Assembly (NCBI GenBank): GCA_030429765.1
Contig: JAUIER010000002.1
Span: 130,239 to 194,238 of the forward strand
Length of the DNA stretch: 64,000 bases
Direction: 5' to 3'
Origin: a bacterium
GTDB lineage: Bacteria > Omnitrophota > Gorgyraeia > Zapsychrales > Zapsychraceae
The position numbers and the translations under genes are program-made. Below, piece after piece: positions 7,854 to 13,800 of this stretch; within the stretch, counting starts at the first letter, position 1, and every line of letters begins with the position of its first letter. The notes under the pieces were generated by a model, which saw nothing but the letters and a program-made list of their open reading frames with translations, was not told the DNA's origin and ran no database searches.

Positions 7854-10800
7854 ACGATCTTCCGATTGAAAGCGAACTTTGCGATCGCTCGGATCTAGGG
7901 AATCGTAACTGATGGTTTTCGATTCATCTTCAGCTGCATCTTTGAGCCCCAAAATCATCGGTAAATTTGTGATTGGGGTCACATTTATGATAACCGGCAC
8001 AATGCCCTGAATTCGGATATTGTCCGGATTACCTCGGTATTTTGGAAAGATTAAACTTCCCTCACCTTTCCGTTCAATTTCAAACAGATTCGGATCAAGG
8101 TCAATACCCCCGACATCCTTGTCTGATGAGATCATCGCATTGTCCAAACCTAGGCGCTGAACATCCACGTCCTCAAGATAAGGATAATTGATATGCGATG
8201 GATCAGCCTGATACGTAATCCTCGTAAACTCCTCTGACTCAATGTCATCCGGATAGATCTTCCAAAGACCCAGCTTGCGTCCAACAGCGGCAATAAGATC
8301 AATGAATTCTTCCGAATAGCCGATTTCGGCAAGTACCGCCGGCGCGAATCCATCACTTAAATCAGCGTCAAGCTGATTTCGACTCATCAGCAATTGCAAC
8401 GCCTCTGCGATCTTCGAAATCAATTTATCGGAATTAGCTTGAAGGAACCCGTCATCCAGCCAATAGGACTTGCCATTGATGTCACCGGCGTAACCCTGTC
8501 CTTTCTCAGCTCTGGCCCGCTCGAGTAAATCCAGGAATTCGTCGTCAGCGTCCAATGCCTGCATGGCGACCATGGCCTGATCCACCGTGAGCGCGTCATT
8601 GAAAGCCACACGCTGAACCGCCACATTTTGATCCGCGGCCGCCCGCGTGATCATCGCGATCGGACGTCGCAAGTTAGGTAATACTTTCTCAGCTGTATAG
8701 AAGTCAATCACACTCTGATTCTTAAAGAGATCGGCCGACAAATATCCTTGTGCCAATCGACGCTCATCCAATGTGATGAATGACAATCCTTGCGCCAAAT
8801 ATTGATCCAGCGCCAGATAATTACCCGGCCACGCGGTATTCATCCCGACTTGGGAATCGATCTCGATTCCAGCCGCTTCGACCATCTCCAAGGCTTTTCC
8901 AATACTTTCCGGAACTTTGACACTATTGAACTGGATATAAACACGATAACCATCCTCTATCAACTCGGCTAAGACCTCCAGTTCGATTCGCAGCAATCGC
9001 TCCCATCGCGGATCCTTAACCAAAGCATCCAATCCGGCAAATCCCAACGCCGGATTCACTTCAGGTTCTTCCATATATTTCTTGCTTCCTTTCAGCTTGA
9101 AGAGATCGTCACTTTGTAAGTCCAGCGTTTCGTAGACCAAACGTGTTTTCTTGTCTTTTAACTGAAGGAGTAGATCTGCCTTCAAAGACTGTCTTAACTT
9201 CGCCTCTCCATCTGTCGTTTCGATAAATCGTAACGGATGAACATTGTTACCGAGATAAAATTCTGAGGCGCGGAATTTAGCATCAAACTCAATTGATTCG
9301 GTTGGTGATTCTGTTTCACTCAATTGTATTTCACTCTGCAGACCTGGAACATCAACCCGTACATCTTGCACCTCACGGTAAATAGTCTTGTTGTTGAAAT
9401 CGATGGTCAGCATATCCCCATCCTCAAGCTCGCGATTAAGTGCTCCGGTGACCTTTACCGACGTCTCTACAATCGGCACGCCCAGTTGCCGGATAGCCTT
9501 TATCTGATCTTCCTGGCCACTGAAATTCTCGATTCGTGCCACGATAACAGCTCCAAGCCGTGCAAATTGCTCTCTGAGGGACTCATCTTCGACAAGCAAC
9601 CGTCCTGTCGCCTTACTATTCTCATCCAATTCCTCGATCACCTTAAAGTCGAGATTACCGGTTAAGACCACAAAATCGCCTACATAGCTCTTTTCAAGCT
9701 CACTCATTCGCTTGACCATATAAGCCGGCCGCGTTGCCGCCCCTTTCTCGGTCTGGGAATCAAAACGATTGGAAACAGCAAATTCTCCTGCCTCATTTGT
9801 TGAAGCCACCGGACTATCAACAACGCCATGTTTTAATGTAGCACTTGCTGCGCGGGTAATGGACGCCAATGTTCCTAAATAATCCGTCCCCGCGTAACCA
9901 CCGGTTTGTCCCAACATCATCAGAATCGTTTCCGCCGCTTCCGGATTGATATTAACCAGATTCACCAAGGCCTGCCCGCATAGCCCACATTTGGTCTCCA
10001 ATTCCTTGGCGATATTAACCACATGTCGAATCGACTCAATAACAAACGGATGCGCTTCGCTAAAGAGGTAGCTCATATCCGGATTGTCCCGATCGGCACC
10101 CAATGTCAGCTGAGTCAAATCGTTCGTCCCGAAGGACAAGAAACTCTTTCGGGAAATCTCGACACCGAATTGTTCTTGGAACCATGCTTTTTGATCAGCC
10201 TCATGATCCTTGAGAACTTTGATAAACTGATCACCTTGAATGACGTTACTAGGCAGCTCGGTCATTTGCCCGACTTCTCTTAGATACACGGGACGTTGCA
10301 ACTGCTCACTCATCGCGCGCTCTTCTTCCACCAGAATTCGCATCAATTCATCCAGCTCATCCGGCGTGGAAACGAACGGGAAGAAAAATCCGATATTCGC
10401 ATATCCCTTTACCACTTGACGAAGAATCATGCGGATTTCTTCACGAAGAATAATTTGATTTTCCGGCTGCAACAACCAGCGTGCTCCACGCTCTCCGATC
10501 ATCGTAGAAACCTCCGGCGTCGGATCAAAAACTTCGGAACCGATGAGCTCGCGCGCCTCGTTCTTTTTGAAGTCGATACTTCGGTAAAGCACAGCATTAT
10601 TTTTGACATTATTTGCGGCGGCCATTGTGGCGATTGCTCCCCCATGAACCGCTTCAAAGAATTCATTGTACGACACATATCCCATCATCTGTTTAGTCGC
10701 CAATGAAATTTGCTCTGGATGCTGCCGAATCAAGTCGATATCCCGGCGAGAGTTTTCATCCAGACTAGCCAAAAATGCTTGATGGCCTTTATTGATAAAT

Positions 10801-13800
10801 TCCTGAATTTTGAGGTTAGTCTCATCCAAGACCACATCAATACCCCGAGCCCGTGCATCTTCACGTGCTTTGAGATGCATACGGAATTTGTCCAACGCTT
10901 CCAGCTCTTGCTCATTCAGCGTCGCTCTGTAACGTCGAGCCGGCGGGTTATCCTTCACGGTTCGCAGATAAGCATCGACAAGGAAATTGTCGTAAGCCCG
11001 GCCAAATCGTGGATTAATATTTTCTTCGGCATACGCAAACTCACCTCGCATAAGTGCAACACCGGAGTACCCTGAGTATCGGGAAATTTTAGACATGGCC
11101 AACATTGGATGCGGCATCCCCATAATGTACCCGATTCGTGTGTAAACCTCTGGTAAGCGTTTAAGATCGATTTCGATATATCGCTTGCTGATTGGAAGCT
11201 CTCCAGCGTAGACGGCACCGAAACCAGTACTTTCGTTGGCATTGGCATCTACAGTAACGACATTGCCGGACGTATTGATATACTCAAGAATCTGCTGAGC
11301 CTTTTCCTCACCAACACTGGCTTCCAGTTTGTTCACCCACGACTGAATCCCAACAACGGTCGCAATTCCCAACTCTCGGGACATAACCGCCGCGTGAGAC
11401 GTCGCACCGCCAACATCAGCGATGACACCCATCACGTTTTTGGTTTGCAGGACAGCGTTGTAATCTGGCGTTGTTTCGCGGGTTCGGATAATCACCTGAA
11501 CACCACTATCCGCTAGGCGCTTGATCTCCTCAAACTGCGACGGCAAGCTCTTCTCTTCAGAGATTTTAAAGATCTGCCCGGAAAAACTATTTCGCGTCGC
11601 GATACCCTGTGCCACCAACTCACCGCGGATCAACCCAGAATCTTCGCCCTTTACGTTAGGCATCGGCTCTTCAAGACTACGAACCTCCTTAAGATCCTTT
11701 TCTGGAACATATGTGTAATCAATTTCGATTAGATCCGGTTTCTTGACGTCACCATCCACATTGGATGGACGACGCTGAACTGTCACAGGCGTATTTTCCT
11801 TACCCAGATTTAGCCCCACGGCCCCTTCCATATCCACTAGATGGCCGTATCCTCGCGCCTTTTCCATGAATTCTTTGGCAATTTCTATAACCTGACTGTC
11901 CGTGGCTGAGAATGAGTTTCTCATATTTTCCGAGACATCCGTAAACATGGTCTTCATCTCTGGATCCTCTTCCAGTTCTTTCAGCAAATGAACAAGCAGT
12001 TTCAAATCATCCTTGTCGTACGCAAAAAACTGTAAATCTTCGTCCGTGATCTCATTAACCGTCTTGTCTACGGTCAACGCGATTAACCTCTGAAGGACAT
12101 TACGAACATCTTTCACATCAACACCGTTAGCCAAGCCCACGGAAGGTAATACATTAGATCCTTCAAGGACGTTGAGATAAACTTCAACTTCAGACTCTAT
12201 GAGCCCTAATTTCTCGAGCACCGGAGCCGTGTACACAGCCTGAACCGTCTTGGTCCCCAGCTGTCGACTCAAAATATTGACATGCGACCCATTTTCATCT
12301 TCAAAAATATGGACCAGGAATGTATCCGGCGTTGCAACCCCCTGCACGATGGACTCACCGATTCCATAGTTCGTGGTAATCGTTGCCACGCGCCCTCGAT
12401 TGACGTATTCATCTTCCGGTATATCCTGGAAGCCCATCGCCGTCCAATCCGCTGATATGTCATGCCCCATGATAACAAATGAGATATCCACACCAGCCAT
12501 CGGCATTACCGTGACACCCATTGCGATATTCTCAACGTCCAGCAAACTTTGTCGATGCTTATTAACGATCTCGACCTGATCATCATATCCATGCTTGGAT
12601 AGGGCTTTGCGTAACTTTATCGAGGTCACAATATTAAAGTTTTTATCGGCTAAAGCCTCCGCCACCAACTGATCGTTGGCATCAGAACTTTGGCTTAATG
12701 TTTCGATGATTTCTTCGGATTTCTCCGCATCACTCAGAATTTCGTCAAACGCCTGGATCACCATCAGCGTATCCCGATATTTCAATACCTGTTCGGTATA
12801 TAGTGACGCCACGTCATCCCGCCATCGCCGTACAACCGCGTCTTCACCAGATTCACCAAGATAACTGTCATGCTGTCCCGCGTTTGAACCAATATTGACA
12901 TCTGTCAAAACTTTAAAGATGTACGCATTATCCTCGGCCTTACCGGAGCTGCGAATAGCCACAAGATCTTGCTTTGTTATGCGGCGCAATTCGCGGTAAG
13001 CTTCCCGTAAATCCCGCTCGATATCCGCCGGAACATCGTAACTTGTAATCAATTTACGAATGGACGCTTCAGCCCCACGCCGACCATCTTCGTCCGACAC
13101 ATCCAGATCATCCAGAATCGCGTTGATCTGCGGAATTAAGTCTTTGTACGCCTTTAAGAATTTTGTGGAGGCTGTTGTTGATGCTCCAAAACTACGAAGA
13201 TTCTTGCTTGGAGCCTGAGACCAATATAACCCTTGCTGATAAGTCTTCCCTCCAACCAGTTCTTTACCTCGCTTTTCATCCAATACCGATGATTCATAGT
13301 CCCAGATCACATTTTTCTTTAACAACTGCTGATAATAGCGTTCCAGGAACGCATCCACGGACGCCTGAACAAACTCATTCAGCTTTTCCTTATCGATGGC
13401 GGCCTCAACTTGATTCGCTACATCTTCACCAGCTGCAACTGCCGCGTTATAATTACTTCCGTCATCATTCATTAAACTTTTCGCCTTGAAAAGGCCGGCC
13501 GCTTCCCTTAACAGGAGCAGGTCAAGTAGTGACTCATCTTCCCGGCCCAGTTCGTCCGCAATACCTTGTCCGACATATACTCTACTGGCGGTTACCCCTG
13601 CATGAGCAACCTGATATTCATTGGCATTTCGAATTACGAGTGTCGGCGAACCATTTTTCATATCTTGAACACCGACAAATTCCACTTCCTTGATAAATTC
13701 CCTTAATTCATCTGGATCAATATCGTTGTCGAGCAGACTCTGTTCGATCCGTTGATCCGTAGACAGGTTAATAATCGAATCCACGCGGTCAATTGTCTGC

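Follow-up and report, generated by a model that had tools for sequence, protein, structure and literature searches.

A 3,431-aa multi-enzyme protein encoded in the window (the whole 64,000-nucleotide stretch of DNA analyzed here) is likely to carry among its cargo a divergent enzyme of the PEP synthase type (pyruvate, water dikinase) that is capable of catalysis and in which a dead copy of two domains would form a pseudo-dimer interface. The host, an uncultured bacterium, belongs to Omnitrophota according to the taxonomy of relatives of the protein, and the PEP synthase module shares one polypeptide with a GAPDH-like module (Table 1). A first-pass annotation of this DNA had proposed an intact phosphotransfer module at 9843-13295 on the minus strand. 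This was borne out, as the interval corresponds exactly to aa 1610-2760 of the open reading frame. The motifs that it quoted were each found in the canonical order: GGKTYQ (aa 1624-1629), IRSSGKAED (1723-1731) and NAGQHD (1747-1752) in the ATP-grasp domain, GGATSHAAV (2238-2246) in the swivel domain, and GTNDLTQ (2665-2671) and CGLCGQA (2712-2718) in the barrel. The codon of His2243 also lies where it had been placed. The proposed bounds hold for the catalytic core; the functional unit is larger and extends between junction motifs from aa 1392 to 3183 (nt 8574-13949), the degenerate second swivel and barrel included. The degenerate duplicate, the N-terminal extension and the family context were absent from that annotation.

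Table 1. Features of the giant open reading frame and its PEP synthase module.
Feature	Position (nt)	Strand	Residues (aa)	Basis
Giant ORF, Omnitrophota multi-enzyme protein with N-cap and C-cap	7827..18122	-	3,431 aa
Signal-peptide-like N-terminus (KK, hydrophobic stretch, SYA|Q)	18018..18122	-	1-35	hydropathy
N-cap domain (WVNLSPYE ... PRKYFSGG), unannotated	16959..18017	-	36-388
Junction motif DFAM	16950..16961	-	388-391	D-x-A-M
Weakly methyltransferase-like module (DASAGTGG)	15873..16952	-	391-750	PF08242, 5mpt
Junction motif DSAM	15870..15881	-	748-751	D-x-A-M
Module with archaeal class II GAPDH-like core (SCNTT 1107-1111)	13950..15872	-	751-1391	NF003251, profile search
Junction motif DAAM	13947..13958	-	1389-1392	D-x-A-M
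N-terminal extension of PEP synthase module, 218 aa, unannotated	13296..13949	-	1392-1609
ATP-grasp nucleotide-binding domain, two large helical insertions (~1784-1909, ~1966-2059)	11523..13295	-	1610-2200	PF01326
Swivel phospho-histidine domain	11193..11522	-	2201-2310	PF00391; aligned catalytic His
Thr2241 codon	11400-11402	-	2241
His2243 codon	11394-11396	-	2243
Linker with insertion, then PEP/pyruvate TIM barrel	9843..11192	-	2311-2760	PF02896
Cys2715 codon	9978-9980	-	2715
Degenerate second swivel-like domain without His (ENFSGQED replaces GGxTSHAA)	9243..9755	-	2790-2960
Degenerate second PEP-utilizers_C-like barrel	8613..9170	-	2985-3170	hhalign, profile search, PF02896
Junction motif DQAM	8571..8582	-	3181-3184	D-x-A-M
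Small unannotated module	8136..8573	-	3184-3329
Junction motif DNAM	8133..8144	-	3327-3330	D-x-A-M
C-cap core (GGIDLDP ... PVIINVTPITNLPMILGL)	7938..8111	-	3338-3395

All three Pfam domains expected of such an enzyme were significant and in canonical order: PF01326 (PPDK_N) with 120.5 bits against a cut-off of 27 (E 1.2e-34; 7e-37 in a second Pfam scan), PF00391 (PEP-utilizers) with 54.1 against 23.1 (1.2e-14; 1.5e-15) and PF02896 (PEP-utilizers_C) with 132.9 against 22.8 (1.8e-38; 3.4e-35). These matches are far beyond chance. The best phmmer matches among PDB sequences were the PEP synthases (EC 2.7.9.2) of Pyrococcus furiosus (8a8e, 1.4e-38), Neisseria meningitidis (2ols, 2.8e-37) and Staphylothermus marinus (9dae, 3.3e-34), in which the same three domains follow each other on one chain. 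GGATSHAAV pairs with GGRTSHAAI or GGRTCHAAI, FLSFGTNDLTQ with FVSFGTNDLTQ and CGLCGQA with SICGQA or GICGQ, so that His2243 and Cys2715 fall on the catalytic residues, His and Cys, in all three solved enzymes, as the first-pass annotation had anticipated. The ATP-grasp ligands and the Thr two residues upstream of the His are likewise shared. Among NCBIfam models, those of PEP synthase ranked first (NF005057, 309 bits against a cut-off of 598; TIGR01418, 276.2 against 739.75). Both scores lie under the equivalog cut-offs, and function is therefore not transferable by rule. The models of PTS Enzyme I (TIGR01417, 109.6 against 341.7 bits), rifampin phosphotransferase (RPH; NF041857, 68.9 against 999) and pyruvate, phosphate dikinase (PPDK; TIGR01828, 54.8 against 843) followed, and membership in these families was rejected. 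Judged by sequence, the module is of the PEP synthase type, divergent, and neither PPDK-type nor RPH-like. Of the activities first suggested, the PEP synthase-like one is thus favored by the NCBIfam and PDB rankings, and the RPH-like one is disfavored by the intact barrel after the His domain and by the NF041857 score.

The catalytic residues are conserved. When the query was compared with 11 orthologs (12 sequences, 51-74% identity to the query segment), GGK 1624-1626, R1724, E/D 1730-1731, Q1750, D-M-E 2097-2099 and Q-R-R 2116-2118 of the ATP-grasp domain, T-S-H 2241-2243 of the swivel, and R2514, R2545, E2622, N-D 2667-2668 and C2715 of the barrel were invariant in all 12. Every nucleotide, Mg and PEP ligand checked was invariant across the orthologs; we take the ligand roles (the GGK Lys, the VRSS Arg, the DxE Glu, QxR, two barrel Arg, Glu and Asn-Asp) to be those of established structural work on PPDK and PEP synthase. 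The swivel (mean identity 72%) and the first barrel (71%) are the best conserved regions of the whole protein.

The module differs from PEP synthase in size and setting. PEP synthase is free-standing and has ~800 aa, whereas the core described here has ~1,150 aa, owing to four or five insertions, and is fused to the dead swivel and barrel and to the 218-aa N-terminal extension, which is present in some orthologs only, in a protein with a signal-peptide-like start. The wide motif spacing, from which insertions had first been deduced, is real: relative to 2ols, alignment blocks place ~87 extra residues at 1784-1909, 84 at 1966-2059, 39 at 2106-2210, 86 at 2364-2465 and ~30 within the barrel. In all, ~330 lineage-specific residues are inserted, within the ATP-grasp domain and ahead of the barrel. 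In the AF2 model, the ATP-grasp insertions form helices (pLDDT ~75-90). Confidence in the model is low precisely in the conserved catalytic cores (mean pLDDT 63.7, pTM 0.41), and it therefore provides no structural check of active-site geometry. A Foldseek search with this model returned PEP synthase 2ols first (1.8e-16), PPDKs next (1.9e-14 and below) and then RPH.

A second swivel and barrel follow the first at aa ~2790-3170. By alignment, this copy is homologous to the PEP synthase swivel and barrel, yet degenerate. All catalytic residues are lost: E, A, A and R-R stand in place of the ligands R, R, E and N-D, and the Cys is missing. A single alignment to 2ols spans both domains (residues 397-694, E 1.8e-10), and a profile of the second copy matched 8a8e at 1.3e-19. 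The second barrel resembles the first by hhalign (93% probability, E 3e-7) and is matched by PF02896 in five of nine orthologs (best E 2.1e-10). Taken by itself, the second swivel gives a weak signal (8a8e with an i-Evalue of 3; hhalign not significant). Mean identity among orthologs is 52% for the pseudo-barrel and 36% for the pseudo-swivel. Two barrel-like regions also occur in other PEP synthase- or PPDK-type cargos of the same protein family. In free PEP synthase, PPDK and Enzyme I, the barrels of two subunits form the dimer interface. The dead copy is probably a built-in pseudo-dimer partner that would supply this interface in cis, an idea that draws entirely on the homology and on the known dimerization of the enzyme family.

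In the mechanism that we propose, the ATP-grasp domain would move phosphate from ATP to His2243 on the swivelling central domain, which would hand it to pyruvate held with Mg2+ in the TIM barrel, where Cys2715 would act as proton donor or acceptor. In reverse, PEP, AMP and Pi would yield ATP and pyruvate. Sequence does not fix the direction, and for an Omnitrophota cell that lives by fermentation and glycolysis, ATP formation is no less plausible than the gluconeogenic direction. A free-standing PFK is encoded elsewhere in the window (41323-42354); together with the GAPDH-like module, it fits a glycolytic setting.

It is improbable that the module is a PPi/Pi-dependent PPDK rather than a water dikinase. 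PPDK (1dik, 1kbl, 1vbg) has the same swivelling-His mechanism, domain order, barrel ligands and catalytic Cys as PEP synthase, PPDK structures were the second-best fold matches, and the paralogous cargos P0033, P0049, P0073 and P0106, with three PEP-utiliser Pfam domains, look PPDK-like by eye. A preprint also names 'pyruvate-diphosphate kinase domains' in giant Omnitrophota proteins, in the passages that match (10.1101/2023.11.21.568195). However, PPDK chains were matched by sequence only at E 1.1e-4 and in the swivel alone, against 1e-38 for PEP synthase, and TIGR01828 scored far below both its cut-off and the PEP synthase models. We consider least probable of all a PEP- or ATP-driven phosphotransferase in which the swivel His serves another acceptor, which could be a small molecule (the case of RPH) or a further protein or module (that of Enzyme I). 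RPH (5fbt, 5hv1; 2.7e-9 by phmmer against PDB) has the PPDK_N-type ATP-grasp and swivel His domains in common with the module, Enzyme I is also a significant relative (5e-19), and the module has unexplained extras in its N-terminal extension, its helical insertions and its second swivel-like domain. On the other hand, RPH has a rifampin-binding domain instead of a PEP barrel and carries its His domain at the C-terminus, and Enzyme I combines an N-terminal HPr-binding/His domain with a PEP barrel and lacks an ATP-grasp domain. Here an ATP-grasp domain is present and the PF02896 barrel follows the His domain with all ligands and the catalytic Cys, invariant in the orthologs; the NF041857 and TIGR01417 scores also argue against this alternative.

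The module might instead be enzymatically idle and serve a surface protein for structure or binding only, with its motifs retained just for fold or ligand binding, which we regard as very unlikely. Judging by its signal-peptide-like start and conserved C-terminal domain, the protein may be exported to a place free of ATP. Such a start, which resembles a cleavable Sec signal peptide, would put an enzyme that depends on ATP/AMP into an extracytoplasmic setting in which its substrates are normally unavailable, and this counts against activity. The same protein also tolerates a fully dead copy of two domains. That copy, however, lost every ligand, whereas the first copy, which no other part of the protein equals in conservation, kept all of them in the 12 sequences. 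This contrast between a live and a dead copy in one polypeptide is what selection for catalysis predicts, and an active PEP-synthase-type enzyme remains the reading that we prefer.

The protein belongs to a family, defined in the present analysis, of ~8,000 clusters in which a signal-peptide-like segment precedes an unannotated N-terminal domain (N-cap), and which have a C-terminal domain of ~55 aa (C-cap), D-x-A-M junction motifs and variable cargo. The motif occurs at module junctions 373 times against 40 expected. The signal-peptide-like hydrophobic segment is present in 97 of 120 relatives, with a nearly invariant Ala at the -1 position of the putative cleavage site, and in 156 of 241 relatives the C-cap occurs precisely once, at the very C-terminal end. 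Searches of PDB and NCBIfam with the C-cap gave no match. The giant protein has the hydrophobic N-terminus (hydropathy peak 1.87 at aa 10-28) and N-cap (WVNLSPYE ... YFSGG), a single GGIDLNP...PVIINVTP...LLLG domain and D-x-A-M at its junctions. Its other cargo includes the methyltransferase-like module, which matched PF08242 at E 9e-4, below the cut-off, and the C-methyltransferase 5mpt at E 0.035, and the GAPDH-like module, which matched NF003251 (1.7e-9) and, by profile, 2yyy (4.7e-10), 1b7g, 2czc and 1cf2 with SCNTT aligned. The syntenic ortholog P0002 lacks the GAPDH-like module, a whole-module indel. The cargo enzymes of the family are normally cytoplasmic. In one relative a perfect Tat signal starts exactly at the Met of D-x-A-M, and an enolase module starts a short distance behind the motif, near its native N-terminus. 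No protease or secretion partner for the family was identified. It is possible, if doubtful, that the family members are polyproteins of central-metabolism enzymes with Sec targeting, which would either be processed at D-x-A|M to give native-like enzymes or stay whole as tethered extracytoplasmic assembly lines.

Giant proteins with PPDK-type and glycolytic domains are explicit in the matching passages of two preprints on Omnitrophota, which describe 'Archaeovorins' (West-Roberts et al., bioRxiv 10.1101/2023.11.21.568195) and a 'multi-enzyme metabolic cluster' class (bioRxiv 10.64898/2026.06.07.730766). As here, a single polypeptide is built of many metabolic enzyme domains that are unrelated to each other, and predictions point to signal peptides or membrane topology. 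These passages of both already raise the location paradox and the question of cleavage, and the cleavage points are stated as unknown in the former. At 3,431 aa, the present protein is far shorter than those described there (at least 7-10 kaa) and falls under the size thresholds given (ORF at least 20 kb, ~7,000 aa, or at least 10,000 aa). No description of the N-cap, C-cap or D-x-A-M was found in the matching passages of either preprint. Since PPDK-type domains were noted in 2023, the module is not a new kind but a variant of those domains, and its enzyme chemistry is ordinary.

With this module, PEP synthase gains a divergent lineage that is rich in insertions and fused to a dead swivel and barrel of its own. 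The module would offer a natural example of a homodimer interface replaced by a pseudo-enzyme domain, useful for studies of enzyme evolution if unsurprising. The conserved active site beside a degenerate duplicate is good evidence that, in large Omnitrophota proteins, the metabolic domains function as enzymes and do not merely reflect annotation noise. If the family forms assembly lines, the PEP synthase and GAPDH modules may make ATP from phosphorylated metabolites released by the prey of predatory or epibiotic nanobacteria, and if the polyprotein idea is true, D-x-A-M would provide the map, so far missing, of where Omnitrophota giant proteins have their processing or junction points. These results sharpen the question of how ATP- and NAD-dependent enzymes function in export-like proteins and whether they are cleaved, and the family-wide N-cap, C-cap and D-x-A-M make the question of location and cleavage testable.

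The window contains one very long ORF (7827..18122, - strand), encoding a giant protein of 3431 aa. The first-pass annotation had placed an apparently intact PPDK/PEP-synthase-like phosphotransfer module at 9843-13295, which corresponds exactly to aa 1610-2760 of this ORF. All of the quoted motifs were recovered in it, and the codon of the proposed catalytic His2243 lies at nt 11394-11396. The Pfam domains came in canonical order, with scores well clear of their gathering thresholds (PPDK_N, E 1.2e-34; PEP-utilizers, 1.2e-14; PEP-utilizers_C, 1.8e-38), and separate segments of the giant protein gave the same three domains again. 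In alignments with PDB sequences, the catalytic positions lined up with those of PEP synthase (PEPS; pyruvate, water dikinase): GGATSHAAV of the phospho-histidine (swivel) domain with GGRTSHAAI or GGRTCHAAI, and CGLCGQA of the PEP/pyruvate TIM barrel with SICGQA. The barrel motif FLSFGTNDLTQ was likewise aligned with FVSFGTNDLTQ of PEPS structures in the PDB sequence search. A His or Cys displaced from the catalytic positions, or a lack of significant PEP-utilizer domains, would have spoken against the earlier observation; both were looked for and neither was seen.

Judged by its sequence, the module is of the PEPS type, but its divergence is too great for a rule-based name. Its closest PDB sequences were PEP synthases (8a8e, 1.4e-38; 2ols, 2.8e-37; 9dae, 3.3e-34), followed by weaker matches to Enzyme I (5e-19), rifampin phosphotransferase (RPH, 2.7e-9) and pyruvate, phosphate dikinase (PPDK, 1.1e-4). 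The top two NCBIfam models were PEP synthase equivalogs, although both scores, 309 bits (cut-off 598) and 276 bits (cut-off 740), were well below cut-off; Enzyme I (109.6, cut-off 341.7), RPH (68.9, cut-off 999) and PPDK (54.8, cut-off 843) scored far lower. For aa 1600-2790, an AF2 model based on 12 sequences served solely to rank fold matches, and Foldseek placed PEPS 2ols first (1.8e-16), then PPDKs and then RPH. The model was mediocre overall (mean pLDDT 63.7, pTM 0.41) and at its weakest in the conserved catalytic cores, and active-site geometry was not read from it. RPH has no PEP barrel and carries its His domain at the C-terminus, whereas in the giant protein a barrel with intact PEP/pyruvate ligands comes after the His domain. 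For this reason, and because PEPS models and structures ranked first, the PEPS-like activity suggested earlier was retained and the RPH-like one was set aside. NCBI names one ortholog 'putative PEP-binding protein'.

Eleven orthologs, all of them Omnitrophota proteins of 2,068-2,843 aa, could be aligned across the whole module (51-74% identity to the query segment). An exact look-up of the giant protein in a contig index returned no record, and its host was assigned by way of relatives. Invariant among them were GGK 1624-1626, R1724, E1730-D1731, Q1750, D-M-E 2097-2099 and Q-R-R 2116-2118 in the ATP-grasp domain, and T-S-H 2241-2243, R2514, R2545, E2622, N2667-D2668 and C2715 in the swivel and barrel. 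Conservation across the whole protein peaked in the swivel and barrel, which averaged 72% and 71% identity to the query, compared with 57% for the N-terminal domain and 54% for the ATP-grasp domain including its insertions. The wider motif spacing had been attributed to insertions, and alignment blocks against 2ols bore this out, with about 87 extra residues at 1784-1909, 84 at 1966-2059, 39 at 2106-2210, 86 at 2364-2465 and about 30 within the barrel. The large insertions were helical in the AF2 model (pLDDT about 75-90). A homology search with the module alone, whose saturated prefilter left distant free-standing relatives uncovered, returned 9 proteins, all within the ortholog set that shares the conserved N-terminal domain (N-cap).

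Downstream of the region first annotated lies a second copy of the swivel and barrel, which had been missed. A nine-ortholog profile covering aa 2775-3185 matched PEPS 8a8e at 1.3e-19 (barrel residues 580-749) and, in a single alignment running through both swivel and barrel (residues 397-694), 2ols at 1.8e-10. PEP-utilizers_C was found in this region in 5/9 orthologs (best E 2.1e-10), and hhalign paired the second barrel with the first (93% probability, E 3e-7). The hhalign comparison of the pseudo-swivel with the true swivel was not significant, and the pseudo-swivel is assigned from the single 2ols alignment and a weak 8a8e segment. All catalytic positions are substituted in the second copy: ENFSGQED stands where the GGxTSH loop is expected, Glu and Ala occupy the two Arg positions of the barrel (VYETLD, GFAG), Ala takes the place of the Mg-binding Glu (NTAWP) and Arg-Arg that of the Mg-binding Asn-Asp (DERRL), and the Cys is absent. 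Mean identity to the query was 52% in the pseudo-barrel and 36% in the pseudo-swivel. Cargos of PEPS and PPDK type elsewhere in the N-cap family likewise have two barrel-like regions, and the tim2 HMM matched both barrels of P0013-type proteins about equally. By eye, PPDK-type (NARRLTE) and P0013-type (IRLTS) cargos show a similar Arg-for-Asp replacement in their second barrels. This shared replacement hints at a conserved non-catalytic role of second barrels. The barrel is what joins the subunits of the dimer in free PEPS, PPDK and Enzyme I, and we therefore infer that the dead copy may act as an in-chain pseudo-dimer partner.

Taken together, the module is probably an active PEPS-type enzyme, in which phosphate would pass from ATP through His2243 to pyruvate, or in the reverse direction. 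Against this stand family scores below cut-off, the inserted residues, a model too poor to rely on and an apparent export signal. PPDK-type chemistry is unlikely, as its NCBIfam score falls far short of those of the two PEPS models. That the module is an idle structural element is slightly less probable still: the duplicate serves as an internal control, since none of its ligand residues survives, whereas the first copy retains every one. Least probable of all is a phosphate relay to some other acceptor.

The remainder of the giant protein is a chain of modules, listed with neighbouring genes in the table.

Features of the giant protein and of selected neighbouring genes (window coordinates; aa of the giant protein)
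Feature	Window	aa	Strand	Remarks
Signal-peptide-like start		1-35	-	KK, hydrophobic core, SYA|Q
N-cap, conserved N-terminal domain		36-388	-	
Weakly methyltransferase-like module		391-750	-	
Archaeal class II GAPDH-like module	13950-15872	751-1391	-	catalytic SCNTT aligned
PEPS module with 218-aa N-extension and dead duplicate		1392-3183	-	
Degenerate tandem duplicate of PEPS swivel and barrel	8613-9755	2790-3170	-	homology, ligands lost
Small unannotated module		3184-3329	-	
C-cap, conserved C-terminal domain, about 55 aa	7938-8111	3338-3395	-	GGIDLDP...PVIINVTP...LGL
D-x-A-M, five copies	16950-16961, 15870-15881, 13947-13958, 8571-8582, 8133-8144	388, 748, 1389, 3181, 3327	-	
AAA_22 ATPase and small protein	28833-30247		+	small protein with weak CdsD_C/PBP_N matches; only two sizeable + strand genes
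Free-standing phosphofructokinase	41323-42354		-	PF00365, E 1e-107
T2SS/T4P-type ATPase	50594-51661		-	PF00437

The GAPDH-like core matched archaeal class II GAPDHs (2yyy, 4.7e-10; also 1b7g, 2czc and 1cf2), and in one relative (P0014) the module is present twice in tandem. Searching Pfam, NCBIfam and PDB by sequence and by profile gave no match for the N-cap, the C-cap, the N-extension or the small module. The C-cap (consensus GGIDLNP...PVIINVTP.NLPLLLG) occurs as a single copy at the extreme C-terminus in 156/241 relatives, and its likeness to a sorting or anchoring domain is one of position only. P0002, the syntenic ortholog, was compared with P0238 (L081 8001-16280): as deposited, the P0002 gene begins at MNLPVPG, without the signal-peptide-like segment. 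This segment (MSFSNFKNGLICKIINSFILTAFGVTSVIPPSYAQ) is present in P0238, a 2,800-aa variant from the same cluster, so that some family members seemingly lacking it may be start-codon miscalls.

The modules meet at a short motif, D-x-A-M, which was observed 373 times in 120 relatives against 38.6 +/- 7.6 in shuffled sequences. Near-variants were at expectation (E.AM, 40 vs 49; D.AL, 137 vs 160; D.AV, 116 vs 117; D.GM, 23 vs 34), and the motif is highly specific for D, A and M. It lies a median of 63 aa after the YFSGG of the N-cap and a median of 30 aa before the C-cap. In the relative P0139 (aa ~820-850), a textbook Tat signal has the Met of DAAM as its first residue (DAAM-ITRRNFVIGSGLLAAVAVFGG). 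P0028 has an enolase module shortly after the motif (DAAM-MVGSVKGIKASEVFDSRDNPT), starting near what we take to be the native enolase N-terminus. P0002, in the same neighbourhood (uvrB-coaX-groES-groEL-[giant]-guaB-guaA-dnaE), lacks exactly the GAPDH-like module, an indel flanked by two D-x-A-M motifs. These three cases suggest that each module may behave like a complete ORF joined behind D-x-A. Since x and Ala are encoded by varying codons, D-x-A-M is not conserved as a DNA site; it could be a protease or processing site, a docking element or a trace left by module shuffling. Internal translation starts were considered as its cause and rejected, as nothing resembling an SD lies upstream of the five internal Met codons; this is weak evidence because an obvious SD is found at only some genes of the window. 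Internal Tat-type signal peptides occur in some relatives (P0139; P0182 and P0123 after the N-cap), and P0182 has a lipobox-like signal, RRNFLK...C, about 20 aa past a DNAI motif. Internal export signals of this kind are hard to explain except by removal of the upstream part or as relics of recent fusion.

The giant gene sits among ordinary chromosomal neighbours (dnaE, guaA, guaB, groEL, coaX, a DUF2207/LemA pair, uvrB, aroB, accB/accC, efp, rpoA, rpsD and rplQ), and nothing among the window neighbours pointed to a mobile element or an assembly artefact. The phosphofructokinase shows that, for at least this glycolytic step, the same genome region encodes an ordinary protein with no N-cap. The AAA_22 ATPase is, in our impression, ExeA/GspA-like.

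Giant ORFs with mostly unknown functions occur across Omnitrophota (Seymour et al. 2023). In the passages of two preprints returned by a term search, West-Roberts et al. (bioRxiv 10.1101/2023.11.21.568195) predict giant-protein domains to be extracellular, suspect cleavage at points unknown and place secretion-system loci close to giant genes, and a 2026 preprint (bioRxiv 10.64898/2026.06.07.730766) defines a 'multi-enzyme metabolic' class and reports predicted signal peptides and/or transmembrane helices in nearly all long proteins by DeepTMHMM. The setting of the enzyme is already flagged in preprints; those passages make no mention of shared N-cap/C-cap domains or D-x-A-M, and no description of this architecture was found in the searchable literature. 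The family architecture of N-cap, C-cap and D-x-A-M is a more unusual result than the PEPS module that it carries.
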